64,000 nt of DNA from Octopus vulgaris. Its lineage: Eukaryota. The stretch lies in assembly GCA_951406725.2 (NCBI GenBank), contig OX597826.1, positions 76,818,001 to 76,882,000 on the forward strand, in the 5' to 3' direction. The notes beneath the pieces were generated by a model, which did no database searches, had not been told where the DNA came from, and saw only the letters and a list, made by a program, of their open reading frames with translations. Position 1 is the first letter of the stretch. Every line of letters begins with the position of its first letter. Shown here piece after piece: positions 5,463-53,730 of this stretch. The translations under genes and the position numbers were made by a program.

Positions 5463-6000
5463 CATAAGCAGTTGTCCGAAAATGTCATCACGGCATTATC
5501 TTCCGATGAGACATGTTGTAGCTAGGACACTCGATAATAAGATCTGTTGGAAGGATAATCCCAAGGACAAAGAAATAAGAACCCACAATATGGTGGAATC
5601 CATAGCCACTCATGATGAAAAGGAATACTGGCGGAATGTCCCAGTGAAGACCTTAATAAAATGTAAGCGCAACAGACCTGATATAATGATTTGGGATAGA
5701 GAAGAGAAACTGTACACAGTTGAAGAAATTAGCTTCCCAGCAGATGTTAACATGAAGCTGAAGACCAGTGAAAAAGAGAACTATTGAGAAATCTGTAGTT
5801 GCTCTATCCAGATTACATGTTCAGGTTTATACCTGTAATTATTGAGGCTCTGGGATATGTAACACACTGCTTAAATACCAATCTTGAGAAATTAGGCTTC
5901 TCAAAACCATAAAGGAGAACGCTAATTCGAAGGCTACGGATCCAGTTCATCACTAGAACTGTAAAAATCTGTAAAACTTTCCAGAAGTTTATCCTTTAGA
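5461..6000 (+). pseudogene. 3' end of a restriction-like-endonuclease (R4/Dong-type) non-LTR retrotransposon, 5'-truncated
   Basis: IISSC...Y..RH.VA (end of CCHC knuckle and RH motif), NRPDIMIWD...EIS.P.D.N...K..EK..Y (PD..D/E..K nuclease), then after a frameshift IPVIIEALG...LEKLG...TVKICKTF. Confidence 0.85.
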
Positions 6001-27899: not shown

Positions 27900-28910
27900 A
27901 CAGTATATATTTATAATTAAATATTAAGCGTCTAAAAGTCTCCACGAAGGTGAGAAAGGTGAGAAAGTTTGACGCCCTTCAACACGAAGGAACACGAAGA
28001 AATCAACACAGAGACTATAAAAAAAAAACTTGTGGATTTAGCGGTTAGTCATGGCGACTTGTTGGACAAAAGTAGTTAGATAGGAGAGCTAGGAAGAAAG
28101 GGAGATAATAAAGTACTGGTGGTCCGAAAATGAGGGTGCCTGTGTGTTTTTCAATGTGAGAGTGTATGTGCGTCTGTAATGTGTGGGTGGGTGATTGATG
28201 GTGTGGGTGCTGGGAAGTGGTCAGTGCTAGTGTGTGCGGAGTGGTGTGGAGTGGTGTGATGTGATATGATGGTGTGTCGGTGTGTGATGTGGTGTGGTGT
28301 TAGTGTGGGGATGTGAAGTTGGGTGTGGGTTTAGGGTGAGGTAAGGACGTGCGGGTAAGGGTGGAGTGTGTGGGAGTGAGATTTGTGGGGAGTCGTGGAT
28401 AGAGGTGGTATAAATGAAGGGAGAAGGTCGGTAGGAGTGAAGAGAGGAAATAGGTGTCAGGGCAAGAGAAGAGAGGAGGGGAGTCAGATGAAGAGGTGAG
28501 GGGAGTTGAGCCCATGTAGAGCAAAAGAGCGAAGAGAGAAGATTAAAAAAACTTTTCACGGCGAAGATGGGAGTCTGGATGGCCGCTGTTCAAAGAGAAA
28601 TCGAACACAGGTAGATGTTGTAATGAAAGAAAGGTAGAGCGGAAATGGAACGCGACCGGGGTGTCATTGCCGAGTCTAATGCCTCGGAGGTGCTCCGAGA
28701 ACTGGTCAGCCAAGCGGCGTCCCGTTTGACCGATGTACAGAGAAGGGCAGAAAGAGCAGGAGATGCTGTAAATGACGTTGCTAGAAATGCAGGTAAAGGA
28801 GTCAGTGATATGATAGGTACGATGATGGGTGCCTGTGAGGATGATGGTGTTGGAGAGGCAGAGGCAAGTGCGGCAATCCATTCTACTATCACTTCCATGT
28901 GGTGTCTCTG
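27900..28910 (-). mobile_element. Penelope-like element 3' fragment with GIY-YIG endonuclease (coding remnant ~28490-28881)
   Basis: FTCISSNVIYSISCSFCPSLYIGQTGRRLADQFSEH...VAFHF: C..NVIY.I.C..C...YIGQT.R.L....EH is the PLE GIY-YIG signature; frameshifted C-terminus, pyrimidine-rich 3' UTR. Confidence 0.88.
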
Positions 28911-29140
28911 AACATACTGGCTTATTATGTGCTAGTTTATGATAGAATCCCCTCTAGGTCCTGTCTCTCAAATTTGCCCAAATGAAGTAGTGAATCAGAT
29001 AGAGCTGCCCGTCGCAGCACTTCTTTACCTTTCTTGCCCTCTTGACGGTTCGATAAACATTTGTGGGATTTTTGATTTAATACATCTACATCTTCCCTCA
29101 TAGATCTGCGATTATAGTTTTATATATTATGTGTGTTGTG

Positions 29141-37237: not shown

Positions 37238-37284
<47 letters not shown>

Positions 37285-37286
<2 letters not shown>

Positions 37287-37490
37287 TGTTTGTGTTTGTC
37301 CACCCCACCCCATCACTTGATGATCCGCATTGCTGTTTGCATCTCCGTAACTTAGCGGTTCCACAAATGTGACAGATAGAATAAGTACCAGGCTTAAGAA
37401 CTGTCCAGGGATCGATACATTCGACCAAAAGGTCAAGGCGGTGCTTCAGCATGGCCGTAGTCTAATGACTGTAACAAATAAAAGAACAGA
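37285..37490 (+). mobile_element. SINE family B 3' half
   Basis: ccgtaacttagcggttcc...gatagaataagtaccaggctt...aaggcggtgcttcagcatggccg. Confidence 0.75.
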
Positions 37491-41494: not shown

Positions 41495-41579
41495 ATATAT
41501 ATATACGCCATGATAGATCGTTAGCTCCTACACGCATTTTTTCCCTCCTGGTTTCTCTCCTTGATTTTTTCTGTGTATA

Positions 41580-41617
41580 TCTTTCTGTCGAAGAGCGTAG
41601 GTTCGAAACGTAAAAGA
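41580..41617 (+). ncRNA. Minimal hammerhead motif in a PLE-like terminal repeat, core A6 mutated
   Basis: ucuuu-CUGUCGA-a-gagc/guag/guuc-GAAA-cg-UA-aaaga; stem I ucuuu/aaaga. Confidence 0.6.
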
Positions 41618-41741
41618 CTTTTTCTATTTCTATTCCTGAGCGCTATACTACTGCAATTGTTTGTTTGTACTCCACCTGCCTTCGTCTTTTGTTTATTTTC
41701 GTAAACCCTCCCGTTATATATATATATGTAAATATATATAA

Positions 41742-41868
41742 ACGACAGGCTTCTTTCAGTTTCCACCTACCAAATCCACTCACAAGGTTTTGGTTGACCC
41801 GAGGCTATTCTAGAAGACACTTGCCCAAATTGCCATGCAGTGGGACTGAATATAGCCATTCCTGCACC
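41742..41868 (-). mobile_element. SINE family B head, internally deleted
   Basis: Reverse complement of 41903-42066 lacking ~35 bp. Confidence 0.8.
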
Positions 41869-41902
41869 TCATAATACATCTGTTTTGATATATATAGATA
41901 TA

Positions 41903-42305
41903 GGCGCAGGAGTGGCTGTGTGGTAAGTAGCTTGTTTACCAACCACAGGGTTCCGGGTTCAGTCCCACTGCATGGCACCTTGGGCAAGTGTCTTCTATTA
42001 TAGCCTCGGGCCGACCAAAGCCTTGTAAGTGGATTTGGTAGACGGAAACTGAAAGAAGCCCGTCGTATATATGTATATATATATAGCTGTGCGTGTATGT
42101 TTGTGTGTCTGTGTTTGTCCCCCAGCATTGCTTGACAAACGATGTGTTTACGTCCCCGTCACTTAGCGGTTCGGCAAAATAGACCGATAGAATAAGTACT
42201 GGGCTTACAAAGAATAAGTCCCGGGGTCGAGTTGCTCGATTAAAGGTGTTACTCCAGCATGGCCGCAGTCAAATGACTGAAACGAGTAAAAGAGTAAAGA
42301 GTAAA
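41903..42305 (+). mobile_element. SINE family B, full length
   Basis: Box A tggctgtgtgg, box B gggttcagtccc, CORE-like ggcaccttgggcaagtgtctt, internal (TA)/(TG) linker, tail ending (gtaaaga)n. Confidence 0.88.
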
Positions 42306-43599
42306 GAGTGTATACACATGTGTGTATGCGTGTGTTTGTGTGTGTGTGTGCGTGTGTGTGTGTGTGAACTCAGAGTGAGAAAGAAAGAAAGAAAGAAAGA
42401 AGGAAAGAAAGAAAGAAGGAAAGAAAGAAAGTAAGGAGGAGAGATGCAGGATTTGGAGTAATGAGGAGACAAACGTATATATATATATCTCTCTCGTACA
42501 CACAATTAAATTGAACCGATGTTTAAAATATATTGATTACTAATTAGACTACACACGCACGAATATGCATGCATGCATATATATATATATGTGTATATAT
42601 GTTTGTGTGTTTTTCTGTGTGTGTGTGTGTTTATGTATGTATGCATGTATGCATATGTATATGTGTGTGTATTACGCCTCTGTGTACAATTTATTAGATG
42701 CCAACCAATTACTGTTTTTGAGTTATTCCATATAATTTGCTTTCTCCTTTTTTTTTTTTTTTGGTTTAACTTGAAGTTGCTGCCTACATATGACTTATAA
42801 GTAAAATTGCTTTTATTAATAATGCAATTTCAGAATTAAATATTGTTATTCAATATTTAGAATTATAAATGTTTTGGTACTAATTTGTAATGTAAACACA
42901 TCGGTTTTTTTTTATAGAAATATATTGCCTTTGCTGCACACATAAACATATTCACAGAAATATACTTAAACGCAAACATATGTGTGTGCATATTTATGTG
43001 TATACACACACAAATGTGGTTATATATATATATTTGTATGTGTGTGTGTGTGTGTATGCATACGTATATATACAAACAACACATATTTATAAATGTGTGC
43101 ACAAATATATGTGTGTGTGTGTATTTATGTCAATTAATATATATAACATTCTCTGAGAAATAATTAAAATGAATAAAATATTTATTAATATTTTCATCAA
43201 TATTTGTTTAAAATTAATTAGCAACTACTATCATTTTTCTGTTATTGTTGTTATTATCGTCGTCGTCGTTGTCATCATCATCATCATCATCATTACTACT
43301 CGCTGTTGACTTGTTCGTGTGTGGTTTTAATATCACATTTGGTGACTCTGGCGTCTACAAATTTAAACTTCGTAAAGTATACTTTTAAATACATTTTCAT
43401 GCAGAGAATTCGAACACTTCGGAATTTGTCGAAACAGGGTCTGAAATAAGAGAAAAAATCTTCTGGTGGAAACTTTAGGATTATGTCTCTTCTTCTCTGC
43501 AAACGTGCAAATGATGTTGTAGCGGAAACTCTACAAATCCAAAATCTACGACGAGGAACACGATTTCTTTGGTAAACACAGGGAAGAATGAAATGTTAG

Positions 43600-43906
43600 A
43601 GGCAAGTAGAGACACCGTTTTTCGCTATGCAACCATAACATACAAACGACTTACAAGTCGATATTGTGTCTTACTGTGCTAACAGTGGTATTTCTTTAGA
43701 GATTATAACCAGCACAATAATTTCTATAGAAAATCTGTAGAGAAATTAAGCATATGTATATCCTTAACAAGAAGAATGAAAGGGAAACTAATACCAATTT
43801 ACTAAGATGTATATCTTGCTTCAGGGTCAAAAATATTGACTCTTGTTCGTCAATATTGTCATATTGAAAACAAGGTCAAGTGAAAGGCAAAAACTTGTCA
43901 TGGGTG
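43600..43906 (+). pseudogene. Decayed R4/Dong-type RT, part upstream of the array
   Basis: With frameshifts: Y.TIT...TTYKSIL (cf. YRPITCL.T.YK), G.K..LL.VN..IL (cf. GCK+QLL+D..IL), KNLS..W at 43888-43906 (cf. KNLS+AW). Confidence 0.55.
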
Positions 43907-46900
43907 GTTCGCCAATCGAGATCGACGAAATGACTTAGCGTGTCACCAATCGAGATCGATAAAATGACGTAGCGGATCTCCAATGGAGTTCGATAAAATG
44001 ATATAGCGGTTCGCCAATCGAGTTCGATAAAATGACATATCGGTTCGCCAATCGAGATCGATGAAATGAATTAGCGGTTCGCCAATTGAGATCGATGAAA
44101 TGACATAGCGGTTCGCTATCGAGATCGATAAAATGACATGGCGGTTCGCCAATCGAGATCGAGAAAATGACGTAGCGGTTCGTTAATCAGGATCGATAAA
44201 ATGACAAAGCGGTTCGCCAATCGAGATCGCTAAAATGACATAGCGGTTCGTCAATCGAGATCGATAAAATGACATACTGGTTCGCTAAACGAGATCGATA
44301 AAATAACATATCTCGCGAATCGAGATCAATAGAATGACATATCGGTTCGCCAATCGAGATCGATAAAATGACTTAGAGGTTCGCCAATCGTGATCGATAA
44401 AATGACATAGCGGTTCGCCATTCGAGATCGATAAAATGACATAGCGGTTCGCCAATCGAGATCGATAAAATGACATAGCGGTTCGCAAATCAAGATCAAT
44501 AAAATGACTTAGTGGTTCTCCAATAGAGATCGATAAAATGACATAGCGGTTCACCAATCGAGATCGATAAAATGACAGCGGTTCGCCAATCGAGATCGAT
44601 AAAATGATGAAGCGGTTCGCTAATCAAGATCGATAAAATGACATAGCGGTTCGATAATCAAGATCGATAAAAGGACATATCGGTTCGCCAATCGAGATCG
44701 ATAAAATGACTTAGCGGTTCGCCAATCGAGATCGATAAAAAGACATATCGCTTCGCGAATCGTGATCGATAAAATGACATAGCGGTTCGCCAATCGAGAT
44801 CGATAAAAGGACATTCCGGTTCGCCAATGGAGATCGATAATATGACATAGCGGTTCGCCAATCGAGATGGATAAAATGACATAGCGGTTCATCACTCGAG
44901 ATCGATAAAATGACATAGCGGTTCGCTAATCGAGATCGATAAAAAGACATATCGGTTCGCCAATCGAGATCGATAAAATGACATAGCGGTTCGCCAATCG
45001 AGATCGATAAAATGACATAGCGGTTCGCCAATCGAGATCGATAAAATGACATAGCGGTTCGCCAATCGAGATCGATAAAAGGACATAGCGATTCGCCAAT
45101 CGAGATCGATAAAAGGACATAGCGGTTCGCCAATCGAGATCGATAAAAGGACGTAGCGGTTCGCTAATGGAGATCGATAAAAGGACATACCGGTTCGACA
45201 ATGGAGATCAATAATATGACATAGCGGTTCGGCGATTGAGATCGATAAAATAACATAGCGGTTTGCCAATCGAGATGGATAAAATGACATTGCGGTTCAT
45301 CACTCGAGATCGATAAAATGACGTAGCGGTTCGCTAATCGAGGTCGATAAAAAGACATATCGCTTAGCCAATCGAGATCGATAAAAGGACATAGCGGTTC
45401 GCCAATCGAGATCGATAAAACGACATGTCCTTTTATCGAAATCGATAAAAGGACATAGCGGTTCGTCAATTGAGATCGATAAAAAGACATAGCGGTTCGC
45501 CAATCGAGATCGATAAAAGGACATAAAAGGGTCGCCAATGGAGATCGATAATATGACATAGCCGTTCGGCAAGTGGGTTCGATAAAAATTACGTAGCGGT
45601 TCGCTAATCGAGATCGATAAAAATGACATAGCGGTTCATCACTCGATATCGATAAAATGACATAGCGGTTCGCCAATCGTGATCGATAAAAGGACATAGC
45701 GGTTCGCCAATCGGATCAATAAAAGGACATAGCGGTTCGCCAATGGAGATCGATAAAATGACATAGCGGTTCGCCATTCTAGATCGATAAAATGACATAG
45801 CGGTTCGCCAATCTAGATCGATAAAATGACATAGCGGTTCGTCAATGGAGATCGATAAAATGACATAGCGGTTCGACTTTCTAGATCGATAAAATGACAT
45901 AGCGGTTCGCCAATGGAGATCGATAAAAAGACAGCGGTTCGCCAATGGAGATCGATAAAATGACATAGATGTTCGCCAATCGAGATCGATAAAATGACAT
46001 AGCGGTTCGCCAATAGAGATCGATAAGATGACGTAGCGGTTCGCCAATCGAGATCGATAAAAGGACATAGCGGTTCGCTAATTGAGATCGATAAAAGGAG
46101 AAAGCGGTTCGCTAATAGTGATCGATAAAAGGACATACCGGTTCGCCAATGGGGAACGATAATATGACATAGCGGTTCGGCAATCGAGATCGATAAACTG
46201 ACATAGCGGTTCATCACCCGAGATCGATAAAATGACAAAGCGGTTCGCCAATCGAGATCGATAAAAAGATATATCACTTCGCCAATCGAGTTCGATAAAA
46301 GGACATAGCGGTTCGCCAATGGAGATCGATAAAATGACATAGCGGTTCGCCAATCGTGATCGATAATAGGACATAGCGGTTCGCTAATGGAGATCGATAA
46401 AAGGACATACCGGTTCGCCAATGGACATCGATAATATGACATAGCGTTTCGGCAATTAGGATCGACAAAAATGACGTAGCGGTTCGCTAATTGAGATCGA
46501 TAAAATGACATAGCGGTTCGGCAATCGAGATCGATAAAATGATGTAGCGGTTCGCTAATCGAGATCGATAAAATGACATAGCGGTTCGCTAATCAAGATC
46601 GATAAAAGGACATAGCGGTTCGCCAATCGAGATCGATAAACGGACATAGCGGTTCGCCAATCGAGATCGATGAAATGATAAATCGGTTCGCGAATAGAGA
46701 TCGTTAAAATGACATCGGTTAACCAATCGAGATCGATAAAATGACATAGAGGTTCGCCAATCGAGAACGATAAAAGGACATAGCGGTTCGCTAATCAAGT
46801 TCGATAAAAGGACAAAGCGGTTCGCCAATCGAGATCGATAAAATAACATAGCGGTTCGCTAATGGTGATCGGTAAAAGGACATACCGGTTCGCCAAGGGA

Positions 46901-49900
46901 GATCGATAACATGACATAGCGGTTCGGCAATTGAGATCGATAAAATGACGTAGCGGTTCGCTAATCGAGATCGATAAAATAACATGGCGGTTTGCCAATC
47001 GAGATCGATAAACTGACATAGCGGTTCATCATTCGAGATCGATAAAATGACATAGCGGTTCGCTAATCGAGATCGATAAAAAGACATATCGCTTCGCGAA
47101 TCGTGATCGATAAAATGTCATAGCGGTCCGCCAATCTAGATCGATAAAAGGACCAAGCGGTTCGCCAATCGAGATCGATAAAATGACATAGCGGTTCGCC
47201 AATGGAGATCGATAAAATGACATAGCGGTTCGCCAATCGAGATCGATAAAGGGACATAGCGGTTCGCCAATCGAGATGGATAAAATGACGTAGCGGTTCG
47301 CTAATCGAGATCGATAAAAGGACATATCGGTTCGCTAATTGAGATCGATAAAAGGACATAGCGGTTCGCCAATCGAGATCGATAAAATGACATAGCGGTT
47401 CGCCAATCGAGATCGATAAAAGGACATAGCGTTTCGCCAATCGACATTGATAAAATGACATAGAAATTCGCCAATCCAGATCGATAAAAGGACACAGCGG
47501 TTCGCCAATCGAGATCGATAAAATGACATGTCTGTTCGACAATCGAGATCGATAAAATGACATAGTGGTTCGCCAATCGAGATCGATAAAATGACATAGC
47601 GATTCGCCAATCGAGAACGATAAAATGACATAACGGTTCGGCAATTGAGATCGAGGAAATGACGTAGCGGTTCGCCAATCGAAATCGATAAAAGGACCTA
47701 GCGCTTCACCAATCGGGTTCGATAAAACGACATAGCGGTCCGTCAATCGAGATCGATGAAATGAATTAGCGGTTCCCCAATCGGTTAGCCAAACGAGATC
47801 GATAAAATGAAAGCGTGTCACAAATCGAGATCGATAAAATAATGTAGCGGTTCTGCAATGGAGTTCGATAAAATGACGTAGTGGTTCTCCAATCGAGATC
47901 GATAAAATGACATATCAGTTCGCCAATCGAGATTGATAAAATGACTTAGCGGTTCGCCAATTGAGATCGATGAAATGACATAGCAGTTCGCTATCGATAT
48001 CGACAAAATGACATAGCGGTTCGCCAATCGAGATCGATAAAATAAAATAGCGGTTCGCCAATCGGGATCGATAAAGGGATATAGCGGTTCGCCATCGCGA
48101 TCAATAAAAGGACATAGAGGTTCGCCAATCGAGATCGATAAAATGACATAGCGGTTCGCCAATCGAGATCGATAAAATGACGTAGCGTTTCGCTAATCGA
48201 GATGGATTAAATGACATGGCGGTTCGCTAATCGATATGGATAAAATGACATAGCGTTTCGTCAATCGAGATCGATAATATGACCTATTGGTTCGCAAATC
48301 GTGATCGATAAAATGACATAGCGTTTCGCCAATCTAGATCGATAAAATAACATAGCTTTTCGCCAATCGAGATCGATGAAAGGACATAGCGGTTCGCTAA
48401 TCGAGATCGATAAAAGGACATAGCGGATTCGCCAATCGAGATCGATAAAATGACATAGCGGTTCGCCAATCGAGATCGATAAGATGACATAGCGGTTCGC
48501 CAATCGTGATCGATAAAATGCATTAGCGATTCGCAAATCGAAATCGATAAAAGGACATAGCGGTTCGCCAATCGAGATCGATAAACTGACATAGCGGATC
48601 GGCAATCGAGATCGATAAAGTGACGTAGCGGTTCGCAAATCGAGATCGATAAAATGACACAGCGGTTTTCCAATCGGGATCGATAAAATGACATAGCGGT
48701 TCGTCAATCGAGATCGGTAAAATGACATAGCGGTTCGCTAATCTAGATCGATAAAAGGATATTGCGGTTCGCCAATCGAGATCGATAAAATGACATAGCG
48801 GTTCGCCAATCGTGATCGATAAAAGGACATATCCGTTCGCCAATCGTGATCGATAAAAGGACATAGCGGTTCGCCAATCGAGATCGATAAAATGACATAG
48901 CGGTTCGCCAATCGAAATCGATAAAATGACATAGTGGTTCGCCAATCGCGTTCGATAAAATGAGCTAGTGGTTCGCCAATCGAGATCAATAAAAGGACAT
49001 AGCGGGTTGCCAATCGAGATCGATAAAATGACATAGCGGTCCGCCAATCGAGATCGATAAAATGACGTAGCGGTTCGCTGGTCGTGATCGATAAAATGAC
49101 ATAGCGGTTCGCAAATCAAGATCAATAAAATGACTTAGTGGTTCTCCAATCGAGATCGATAAAATGACATAGCGGTTCGCCAATCGAGATGGATAAAATG
49201 ACATAGCGATTCGCCAATCGAGATTGATAAAATGACATAGCGGTTCGCCAACCGAGATCGATAAAAGGACATAGCGGTTCGCCAATCGATTCGATAAAAT
49301 GACATAGCGGTTCGCCAATCGGGATCGATAAAAGGACATATCGGTTTGCCAATCGTGATCGATAAAAGGACATAGCGGTTCGCCAATCGAGATCGATAAA
49401 ATGACATAGCGGTTCGCCAATCGAGATCGATAAAAGGACATAGCGGTTCGCCAATCGAGATCGATAAAATGACATAGCGGTTCGCCAATCGAGATCGATA
49501 AAAGGACATAGCGTTTCGCCAATCGAGATCGATAAAATGACCTAGCAATTCGCCAATCGAGATCGATTAAATGACATAGCGGTTCGGCAATTGAGATCGA
49601 GGAAATGACGTAGTTGTTCGCCAATCGAGATCGATAAAATGACATAGCGGTTTGCCAATCGAAATCGATGAAAGGACATATCGGTTCGCCAATCGAGATC
49701 GATAAAAGGACAAAGCGGTTCGCAAATCAAGATCAATAAAATAACATAGCGGTTTGCCAATCGAGATGGATAAAATGAGGTAGCGGTTCGCTAATCGAGA
49801 TGGATAAAATGACAAAGCGGTTCGCCAATGGAGATCGATAAAATGACATATCGGTTCGACTTTCTAGATCGATAAAAAGACATATCGCTTCGCTAATCGA

Positions 49901-50622
49901 GATCGATAAAATGACATATCCGTTCACCAATCGAGATCGATAAAATGAATTAGAGTTTCGCCAATCGTGATCGATAAAATGACATAGCGGTTCGCCATTC
50001 GAGATCGATAAAAGGACATAACGGTTCGCCAATCGAGATCGATAAAAGGATATAGCGGTTCGCCAATCGAGATCGATAAAATGACATAGCGGTTTGCCAA
50101 TTGAGATCGATAAAAGGACATAGCGGTTCGCCAATCGAGATCGATAAATTGACATAGCAATTCGCCAATCGAGATCGATAAAATGACATAGCGGTTCGGC
50201 AATTGAGATCGAGGAAATGGCGTAGTGGTTCGCCAATCGAGATCGATAAAAGGACATAGCGGTTCGGCAATCGAGATTGGTATAATGACATAGCGGTTCG
50301 CCAATCGAGATCGTTTAAATGACATAGCGGTTCGCCAATCGAGATCGATAAAATGACATAGCGTTTCGCCAATCGAGATCGATAAAATGACATAGCGGTT
50401 CGCCAATCGAGGTCGATAAAATGACATAGTGGTTCGCCAATCGAGATCGATAAAATAACATAGCAGTTCGTCAATCGAGTTCGATAAAATGACATAGCGT
50501 TTCGCTAATCGAGATCGACAAAATGACATAGCGGTTCGCTTTGGGGATCGATAAAATGACATAGCTTTTCGGCAATCGATTTCGATGAAATGACATAGCA
50601 GTTCGCCAAACATAGATCGACA
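43903..50622. repeat. 34-bp tandem satellite array, ~197 copies, consensus GCGGTTCGCCAATCGAGATCGATAAAATGACATA
   Basis: Unit read directly; the 34-aa periodicity of minus-strand ORFs equals three 34-bp units; no spacers between units. Confidence 0.97.
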
Positions 50623-51500
50623 ACAAAATATATTTGACAGCAAGCCACACTCTTTGACAGAGAGGGATCTCAGATTTCCAAACTCTGCTCGATCACCATC
50701 AAAGTTATCACTGGCCGTAAAAGATGACGCTGAATATCCACAATACAAATGCGTTGTCTGCATCCTACGCAATCAACGCAACAATTGGAATCTTCCAGTG
50801 GATCTTACACACAAGCATTTTACGTATTGACGGAACAACACAAGTTGAGGTGGTAACTCACATAATAAGAAAATAAACCATTTGTTCTGTATTAATACCC
50901 TCAAGATGTGTCCGCAGCATAAGTATTTCTTCTATGATGTCAAAGTGCAACAAGGAATCGGCGAGTATTCTAAATTTCCCTTCGGGTTATATGAAAATAG
51001 AAAACCTGACTCTGACTGATGGATTCATACTTAAAGATTGCCTCTTTGATCAAAGAACCCGATCAAGATATATAAAACTACCTGGGAGTGTTGACAAAAG
51101 AAGATCCGGAAATATTACAGGAAAATACGTCTGACATTTTGAGCGAATTCAATGCGGTTCACAGGTTGAAATCAATCAAGTCCCGACTTAACCCGTATAA
51201 TACCCGACTTAACGCACAACTACACTGTGTACAACTGAAAACTGAACGATACCAAGAGACTGGACTCCAAGACGTTCGAGTTGTTGATTGTAATACACCA
51301 CTTGAAAGCAAATCCCTACGCGTTCTAGCTTCTAAGGGATTTACGGGGACAAAGCATTGGCTAACACGAACTGACCTTCAAAATTATATCTTTTCATCTT
51401 GACATCAGTTTAACAAAAGCAGAGTGAATCATTAAATATCAGATCAAATTGAAAAAGTGTATTTTCAATCGCTCAGGCCGCTCGAAGTTTCCTTTATGTC
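50616..51500 (+). pseudogene. Decayed R4/Dong-type RT, part downstream of the array
   Basis: Motifs in correct order: ID.K..FDSKPHS (50616-50653), GIFQ (50787), KINHLFCINTLKM (50870; cf. INHL.YMDDLKL), NYLGVL (51076), RLKSIKSRLNPYN, LDSKT..LL...HHLKA. Confidence 0.75.
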
Positions 51501-51575
51501 AGCTATCAAAATTAGTTCGCAAACTTCTGCTCTTCAGTCAAGGGTGTGGCACAACATCGATGCTCTCTCTACTCT

Positions 51576-51978
51576 CTCTTTTACTTGTTTCAGTCATTTG
51601 ACTGCGGCCATGCTGGAGCACCGCCTTTAGTCGAGCAAATCGACCCCGGGACTTATTCTTTGTAAGCCCAGTACTTATTCTATTGGTCTCTTTTGCCGAA
51701 CCACTAAGTGACGGGGACGTAAACACACCAGCATCGGTTGTCAAGCAATGCTAGGGGGGCAAACACAGACACACAAACACACACACATACACATACATAT
51801 ATATATAGATATATACGACAGGCTTCTTTCAGTTTCCGTCTACCAAATCCACTCACAAGGCATTGGTTGGCCCGGGGCTATAGCAGAAGACACTTGCCCA
51901 AGATGCCACGCAGTGGGACTGAACCCGGAACCATGTGGCTGGTTAGCAAGCTACTTACCACATAGCCACTCCTACGCT
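51576..51978 (-). mobile_element. SINE family B, full length
   Basis: Reverse complement of 41903-42305 at high similarity. Confidence 0.88.
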
Positions 51979-52339
51979 CATTTACTATTCCATCACTTCT
52001 CACAAACATTTCAGCGAAGTCTTATCCAAAAACCAAAAAAAAAAGTAAAGAAAGACCAAGCAGTCTATTCGGATCGAACATCAGGCCCCAATTGGATCCA
52101 CCAAAGAACAGAATATAGCTTTGATCCCACACTGACAATTATCCACTCAAGTTCTTAAAAAGTTCTTTATTCCTCTTTGCCAAAATTCACGCATCGTTTC
52201 TTGGACAATCGTTTACCGTTTCACTCCAATGAAATAGTCATGATATCCTCTCTTCTTACCATTCATATATAATGCTTTCTAAAACCAGTATTTTGAGTAT
52301 TTCGACTAATTTTTTGTCTTTTGGTTTGTTTTTGTGTGT

Positions 52340-52720
52340 GTGTGTTCTCCATTAATAAGACAAGCGTGGTCTCCGACAGTTCCTATTTAATTAACTCGTT
52401 AATTCCTTCTCTCTAAGCATTCTGCTGGGAATGATGCCTTCAAATTCTAGTTCCGTGTTCATCTCCCGAAAACCTATCTAGTTTTACAGTAAAGTACATA
52501 ACTTTGAGGTTTGTATAGCTAACTTCGATAACCGGTGAACATCTGTCTCTTTGATAGTTTTGCAAATTCGACATCGAATCCCCGTTGTTGTTTCACCAAG
52601 TCCATATCAGTTAATTCAGGAAATACTTTCGAAACCTATCAGACTGGACCATTCCAATCTTCCATTAAATCTAATGAGTAAGTTATTTCTACGAAAGTGG
52701 CCCAAATTCCCGATGAAACC
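52340..52720 (-). pseudogene. Decayed AP-endonuclease of an RTE-type LINE
   Basis: Minus strand LMEDWNGPV (cf. MGDFNA.V), YGLGET..NG, GDH..LI in the expected order. Confidence 0.45.
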
Positions 52721-52779
52721 AACCGATTAATCATACAGGCCATAAAGCAAGCATAGTTTTTATGCAAAAATTCGAATCT

Positions 52780-53730
52780 TTGCGGAACACCGCAGTCCCC
52801 GGACCCGGTGGAATTTGAACTCAGAACGTAGAGACGAAAGAAAATCATTTTTCTCAATGTGCTAAAGATTGAGCCAGCTTGATACCTGTTTAAAATTTGA
52901 GCACAAGGCCAGCAATATTTTTGTGGGATGGGCTCAGTCATTTACATCGACCACAGCACTTGACTGATATTATATTTTATCGATAATGAAAAGTAAAGTT
53001 GACCTCGGCGGGATTTGAACCCATAATGTAAACAACCGGAAGAAATTCTGCTGGCCTTTTTGTCCGATGTGTGAAAAATTCTGCCATTGAAATGTTATTG
53101 TTACAACAATAACTCTTCCCACAAACGGCACAAAACCTGGAGTTTTAAGAGAGAGGGTTAATCGATTACATCGATCTTAAGGGTCAGTTGGCTCTTATTT
53201 TATCAATCCCGAAAAAGTGAATGACAAAGTAGACCATGGCGGAATTTGAACTCAGAACTTAAAGCTGGGAGAAATGCACCAAGCACCTTATCCGACGCGC
53301 TAACAGCTCTGCAAGCTCACCATTTTGTTTCAAACGTTCGCACGAGGCCAGCAACTTTAGTGAGAAAGGGTTAATCACTTACAAAGACTCCAGGACTTGA
53401 TTGAAGCTTAATTTTATCGACCCTGGAGATCTGAAAGGCATAGTTGAGTTCGCCGGGATTGGAACTCAGAAAGTAAAGACGAACGAAATGCCGCTAAGCA
53501 ATAATAATAATAATAATAACAATAATCCTTCCTACTGGCGACACAAGGCCTCAGATTGGTAGGGAGGGGACCAGTCGACCCCAGTGTTTCACTGGTACTT
53601 AATTTATGGACCCTGAAAGGATAAAAAGCAAAGTCAACCTCCGCGGAACTTGAACTCAGAACGCAGCGATAGGCGAAATATCGCTAAGCATTTCGTGCAG
53701 CGGGCTAACGTTTCTGCCAGCTCACCTTAT
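52780..53730 (-). mobile_element. Head-to-tail stack of about five SINE family A copies
   Basis: ggcggaatttgaactcagaa-like motif near 52808, 53008, 53238, 53453, 53643. Confidence 0.8.

Follow-up and report, generated by a model that had tools for sequence, protein, structure and literature searches.

A 34-bp satellite array within a decayed Dong/R4-like reverse transcriptase remnant of Octopus vulgaris: its junctions and possible origin

How did a 6.7-kb array of a 34-bp tandem repeat come to lie within the remains of a retrotransposon reverse transcriptase (RT)? The question is raised by a locus in a 64,000-nucleotide stretch of the Octopus vulgaris contig OX597826.1 (assembly GCA_951406725.2, positions 76,818,001 to 76,882,000, forward strand), which is called here the window and in which all coordinates are counted. 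An initial annotation had proposed that the array splits an RT motif of the R4/Dong type, that its excision brings the W codon back to I-D, that each flank has a likeness to the repeat unit, and that the satellite either arose in place from RT coding sequence or arrived at this motif as an existing satellite or circle. The features of the locus are as follows:

43570–43907, plus strand: left RT remnant, ending in K-N-L-S-(M)-(A)-W, with two 1-bp deletions
43906–50620, plus strand: tandem array of the 34-bp unit, about 197.6 copies, 6.7 kb; its ends include bases shared with the RT
43906–43913, plus strand: left junction; exact 2-bp GG, with 6 of 8 bases matching the empty site (imperfect)
43906–43939, plus strand: first unit, with T at position 30 (9 of 198 units) and C at position 21 (4 of 198)
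50600–50620, plus strand: last, partial unit, with A at position 11 (2–3 of 198 units)
50615–50620, plus strand: 6-bp microhomology GATCGA, which reads as the RT (W)-I-D codons and as unit positions 15–20
50615–51412, plus strand: right RT remnant and thumb region, beginning at I-D
51561–51980, minus strand: dispersed repeat of about 410 bp, beyond the RT remnant and separate from the array

The array and the RT remnant on its two sides

The array is built head to tail from a single unit. TRF delimited it at 43906–50609 (period 34, 197.3 copies, 84% matches) and local alignment to the tandem consensus at 43906–50623 (197.7 units). The unit consensus is identical to the window at 44446–44479; the units diverge from it by 8.5% on average and from one another, within the same array, by 15% pairwise. 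The nearest blocks of five units differ by a median of 8.2% (minimum 2.4%), and a weak periodicity with a lag of 18 units was detected inside the array. These unit and block divergences, together with the 18-unit lag, suggest that the array has grown by block duplication without recent homogenization, and its shared variants and duplicated blocks form the pattern of concerted evolution. No further copy of the unit was found elsewhere in the 64-kb window with up to 12 mismatches allowed, and a 29-base pattern of the unit had no match among metagenome contigs. CpG decay was absent from the units (9.0 versus 10.9 transitions per site). Hairpin-driven instability of the unit was considered and dropped, since 22% of 300 shuffled units were equally stable when folded. 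The array, in which no sign of function was seen, is likely to be without function at this LINE site.

Relatives of the host element were fetched with a better-preserved LINE fragment of the window (5464–5784) as bait, which led to long RT proteins and through these to 80 related loci; 69 of them carried the motif in a long frame, and the 11 that did not were dropped. The separate LINE fragment (5464–5993) has named close relatives from Octopus bimaculoides at 65% and 75% identity, and Pfam RVT_1 was recognized in five of the eight bait relatives scanned, the remaining three being C-terminal pieces. In frameshift-aware alignments to a profile of eight RTs, the right flank ran from the I-D column at 50616 to 51412 with z 23–38 in all four settings (40 shuffles per setting), values that are inflated by selection because these eight RTs were chosen by their score on the right flank. 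An unselected profile of five sequences gave z 5.5–11.9 in nine of nine BLOSUM settings and z 1.6–5.9 as an HMM, and the strict frameshift penalties tried first yielded z of about 3 or nothing. The motifs I-D..F-D-S-K-P-H, GIFQ, KINHLF and YLGV follow one another on the plus strand in different frames, in the order that the initial annotation had read for GIFQ, INHLF and YLGV.

By itself, the left flank was nonsignificant (z −0.5 to 1.9 with the eight-RT profile), and at the DNA level its alignment alone did not rise above shuffles with any of four references. When it was joined to the right flank, the score that it added was exceeded by none of 150 shuffles and by none of 150 other window segments in all four settings; with the weaker profile, the extension was equalled by 2 of 60 shuffles. 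The right flank starts at I-D, and the claim that excision of the array rejoins W|ID was upheld. The cut at 43906/50615 (equivalent to 43907/50616) was the best one with the weaker profile and lay within 1.3 points of the best with the eight-RT profile. A DNA alignment to the reference L008 crosses the join of the two flanks without offset, and the joined remnant is identical to L008 at 93 of 266 residues, with 10 frameshifts and 6 stops. The left remnant is best supported at 43843–43907; further upstream the alignment is weak and the start is uncertain.

Routine searches did not pick up the flanks. Pfam gave no family below E 0.05 on nine flank ORFs, homolog searches returned no matches for pieces of the flanks or for the bait fragment, the comparison with PDB sequences produced one chance match only and that with the ESM Atlas nothing useful (best score 0.78), while tblastn with the long RT relatives missed the flanks (E > 2). 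Downstream of 51424, nothing rose above shuffles, a single-sequence score of 76 against a null of 56 ± 6 having failed to hold.

The colinear alignment to RT proteins marks the host remnant as a non-LTR-type RT domain. Its closest fetched relatives are RTs followed, in six of eight, by a CCHC knuckle, RHD/RHN and a PD motif, which is the RLE-type layout and a likeness to Dong-R4; unlike Dong-R4, the copy at this locus is a fossil, frameshifted and interrupted by stops as counted above, with no detectable endonuclease part. We take the remnant to be of the Dong/R4 type, a name that is given from motifs and not from a tree with named references. The candidate clades are R4, R2, NeSL, HERO and CRE, as set out in PMC4640811, and the supplement of PMC13282606 lists Dong-R4 (RLE group) in Octopus vulgaris with 92.7 Mb in 51 families.

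Taken together, the alignments indicate that the array interrupts a decayed Dong/R4-like non-LTR RT between its W and I-D codons, and that the two flanks represent adjacent RT positions from which essentially no bases have been lost. Thus, the proposed split of the RT motif was borne out, with about 197 units between W and I-D and limits that had been correct within a base or two, and the profile alignments also support the view of the flanks as neighbouring positions in a single R4/Dong-type RT, without a clear target site duplication (TSD).

Junctions and the likeness of the flanks to the unit

The empty site reads TGG ATC GAC. Since the target is a coding sequence with known neighbours, this site can be read without ambiguity, as is seldom possible, and the locus therefore offers a clean, base-resolved junction of what may be a satellite seeding event. 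At the right end, GATCGA belongs to both the RT codons and the unit; such a match has a chance of 3.0e-4 for a random position and phase, or under about 0.01 when two ends and some slack in the cut are allowed. The sequence GGATCGA stands at W-I-D in 6 of the 69 relatives, and hence the microhomology depends on the codon choice of this LINE family.

Beyond these shared bases, the likeness of the flanks to the unit was at chance level. The empty site resembled the tandem unit with p 0.12–0.29, the left flank resembled the unit with p 0.65–0.97 and the right flank with p 0.31–0.42, and anchored extensions gave p 0.24 and 0.39, so that the 12 local and two anchored tests span p 0.12–0.97. Among 240 RT positions, the W-I-D site ranked 159th in likeness to the unit in eight relatives and 121st in 53 loci, that is, in those of the 69 motif loci that had enough sequence. 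Of the supposed resemblance of both flanks to the unit, the GATCGA on the right and the GG on the left stood, and the rest did not.

These figures bear directly on the possibility that the unit was born here, when 13–14 bp were inserted between the W and I codons and some 34 bp of RT sequence then became tandemly duplicated, and that this array later seeded any others. Such a birth also predicts microhomology at the junctions, in a gapped alignment the final 13 bases of the unit match the left flank at 10 positions, the edge units carry C at position 21 as the RT does, and minisatellites and satellites derived from transposable elements, some of them from LINE ORF2, are documented in PMC9659126. 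Against it stand the 14 tests that gave no above-chance resemblance, the 13 unit bases that have no source in the RT, and the W-I-D site, which is not unit-like in either the 8 or the 53 related RTs, all of them distant relatives. Judged against such relatives rather than intact DNA of the family, the unit showed no homology to the host element at this site. We consider a birth in place unlikely.

The ends of the array also limit the ways in which it could have arrived. The net insert (43908–50615) begins at unit position 3 and stops at position 15, which makes 197 whole units and a remainder of 13 phase positions. Integration of an extrachromosomal circle of satellite units, by end joining or by a single crossover, has been proposed for euchromatic satellites of Drosophila and Tribolium (PMC7403614, PMC11610590), and the microhomology and the near-zero target loss would fit it. 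However, the first and last partial units should then sum to one monomer (PMC7403614), and here they amount to whole units plus 13. Because of this remainder a simple circle integration fits poorly, and we regard it as distinctly unlikely. A circle that served as a template with two different microhomologies would be indistinguishable from template-switch repair.

Units abut the RT codons directly at both ends of the array, where no tail, terminal module or clear TSD was found. This speaks against carriage by a mobile element, whether as a satellite transcript retrotransposed by a LINE or within a MITE or Helitron bearing tandem repeats, as does the absence of any Rfam match over 41500–53500. 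On the other side, Dong-R4 and other LINEs have been recently active in Octopus vulgaris according to Table 1 of PMC13282606, and the array ends could be read as a degenerate duplication of 6–8 bp. Such carriage seems very improbable.

The right junction and unit variants in other genomes

Sequence of the right flank, whole or in part, was present in 11 of the 24 listed runs (six studies, four species labels); runs X7 and X8 held small shares of it. Contigs of three of the 11 runs (X4, X9 and X10, of labels B, C and D) were aligned to 50500–51500 at 80% likeness, with which one raw-read run (X13) was also compared. In all three labels, single contigs (records 11, 17 and 2) join the array to the right flank, which is single copy at this likeness in the three runs and differs from the window at 10 of 797 bases in label C and at 20 of 561 in label D. 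Therefore, the right junction is genuine and predates these splits, and the array is already at the RT site in three other species labels. No empty allele appeared in the contigs of the three labels that aligned to the right flank.

For the right junction, the spanning contigs also answer the check for an assembly mis-join that had been called for at the outset. A mis-join, or the fortuitous adjacency of unrelated sequences, could find support in the nonsignificance of the left flank alone, in the fact that read-type support covers the right junction only, and in run X13, whose raw reads (1934 Mb; label of the best-matching run) showed no match to the units and no genuine flank read, where several reads would be expected for a 2.8-Gb genome. 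Yet the RT carries on in register in the left flank, to a degree that none of 150 controls reached, the right junction is spanned in three labels, and adjacent codons are not what a mis-join would bring together. We hold it to be extremely improbable.

The contigs revealed a variant of the unit that is rare in the window. At 50576 (unit position 11), A accounted for 3733 of 6254, 863 of 1020 and 418 of 627 of the depth in X4, X9 and X10 (60%, 85% and 67%), whereas it was absent from the simulated unitigs of this array (0 of 136, 0 of 46 and 0 of 42). The non-A remainder amounted to 47x, 36x and 51x the single-copy depth and agrees with the share that simulation gave to this array alone, which was 42–46x at a minimum length of 40–50 and 136x at a minimum length of 31. 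A linked T30–A11 motif, which does not occur in this array, heads the loose ends of 31, 31 and 25 contigs in the three runs, and 15–17% of 146–177 aligned contigs run on into unlike sequence, versus 2 of 77 simulated ones. From these observations we infer a sister subfamily at other loci, on the order of hundreds of units and not a major satellite, as seen through short-read contigs of other individuals or species that do not include the flanks of its arrays. T30 in the first unit and A11 in the last unit of the window are the alleles of this subfamily.

The depths can be read otherwise, and the simulation worked with plain unitigs from a single haplotype, which the public contigs are not. Run X13, empty on units and flank alike, also counts against the sister subfamily. 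The total depth on the edge units was 98–270x and a single array simulated at a minimum length of 31 reached 100–200x, so the A11 variant could belong to the arrays that are orthologous to this one in those genomes. A total compatible with about one array would suit a birth in place; the dominance of a different variant in three genomes argues against it. In record 2, 21 differences were counted in 423 bases, 11 of them in the flank among the differences listed, and change seems to be quicker in the orthologous edge units than in the flanks. Nevertheless, the median of 8.2% between the nearest five-unit blocks, set against 10 of 797 bases in the flank of label C, makes the array look too old for a wholesale turnover since the split from that label.

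Probable seeding by microhomology-mediated repair and comparable satellites

As to whether the satellite was born here or arrived, the 6-bp microhomology and the signs of a sister subfamily favour a microhomology-mediated arrival, and the in-place birth offered as its alternative found no support in the chance-level p values and the ranks of 159 and 121 among 240. In our judgement, the array was probably seeded from a sister array by microhomology-mediated repair and was then expanded in place. A break at GGATCGA in the LINE fossil would have been repaired by template switching onto an existing array, in a reaction of the SDSA or MMBIR type; the left end would have primed on GGTTCG of the unit and copied some units, and the new strand would have re-annealed to the right end at GATCGA. 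The seed would then have grown to about 197 units through unequal exchange or slippage, and in the course of this expansion the interior of the array would have lost its likeness to the donor, with donor-type alleles surviving in the two edge units. The LINE would have been a passive landing site. The donor array, the repair pathway and the later growth are all reconstructed here from sequence.

T30 in the first and A11 in the last unit would be expected if the edges preserve the donor type, an argument that is post hoc. A caveat on it is that a terminal A-type unit attracts A-type contigs to the edge of the array. The C at position 21 of the edge units lengthens the match to the RT to 9 bp, which is compatible with a birth in place as well. 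Other arrays alone would not reveal the order of origin.

Very roughly, the seeding event may be placed about 5–25 My ago, with a distance of 0.065 for 18 My as calibration (PMC13282606); the date is weak because arrays do not evolve like dispersed copies.

The closest parallel to the proposed seeding is provided by the Rsp-like satellite clusters of Drosophila, which are described in PMC7403614 as seeded at microhomology, with SDSA, MMBIR or eccDNA proposed. There, as here, a satellite interrupts another repeat at a microhomology (4–7 bp in those clusters) with little or no target loss. In contrast to them, the unit at our locus is 34 bp long, the target is a single-copy decayed LINE RT instead of another satellite, and the array is old (8.5% diverged), common to four species labels and with ends that do not sum to a monomer. 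The Cast1–Cast9 satellites of Tribolium castaneum likewise form dispersed arrays with degenerate edge units and microhomology at some junctions, but they prefer poly(A)/(T) tracts at their junctions, where the present array has GATCGA (PMC11610590). PROsat and Pvc 20, linked to LINE-1 ORF2, share with our locus the physical tie of a tandem repeat to LINE coding sequence; they are recognizably derived from transposable elements (88% for PROsat), whereas this unit has no significant similarity to the host RT (PMC9659126).

The process would apparently be an ordinary one of satellite spread, by a family that is apparently undescribed. No description of the 34-bp family was found in the literature searched, including the text available from PMC13282606 and PMC8967140, and it may be among the 80 satellite families that the repeat library of Octopus vulgaris gives as counts (PMC13282606 supplement). 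With this locus, the microhomology model of satellite spread gains an example from a mollusc, and a 34-bp satellite family of octopus comes into view. Its significance would be larger if other arrays had the same LINE target or descended from this locus. We doubt strongly that the family was seeded preferentially at GGATCGA of the Dong-R4 W-I-D codons, with this locus possibly the cradle of the unit; if it were true, the fossils of one abundant LINE would be landing pads for a satellite throughout the genome.

The window as a whole is animal DNA, rich in AT and full of microsatellites. Alignment did not support the idea that the LINE continues past 51980. The dispersed repeat at 51561–51980 is 88.7% identical to 41901–42310 in the opposite orientation and is presumably SINE-like.

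Register and left border of the array

The 34-bp register of the array was interrupted at 47771-47850 by a 46-bp step. The units following this step look like the few with which the array begins, which suggests that the left array edge was duplicated internally at this position. Outside the array, a short palindromic feature was found:

43832-43857, inverted repeat with 9-bp arms separated by a loop of 8 bases, some 50 bp outside the left end of the array

A 12-base insertion, seen in comparison with the related LINE reverse transcriptase locus L008, overlaps this inverted repeat, which is possibly the scar of a template switch.

Repeats bracketing the locus and coverage in X13

The array locus is bracketed by a repeat of approximately 410 bp, presumably SINE-like, with one copy on each side:

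41901-42310 and 51561-51980, two mutually inverted copies, 88.7% identical

Within the window, partial copies also occur near 1984-2163, 37260-37485, and 41720-41850.

In the raw-read run X13 (1934 Mb read), no reads were detected on the 34-bp units or the flank in the 50500-51500 region. The species label of X13 is identical to that of the run best matching the locus; this gap may mean that reads were filtered, that the locus is absent, or that two lineages share one label.

Other coding-like segments in the window

Three further segments were recorded:

28546-28953, minus strand, frame with an endonuclease-like motif
52694-52753, plus strand, 20-residue stretch like the motif that precedes the zinc knuckle in LINEs
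5464-5993, plus strand, better preserved C-terminal fragment (endonuclease region) of an RLE-type LINE

The motif of the first presumably resembles the GIY-YIG endonuclease that Penelope-like elements encode, and the LINE-motif likeness of the second was no better than that of shuffles. The third, used solely as bait, is immediately preceded on its 5′ side by a long (ATAC)n tract, and its nearest named relatives are Octopus bimaculoides proteins.
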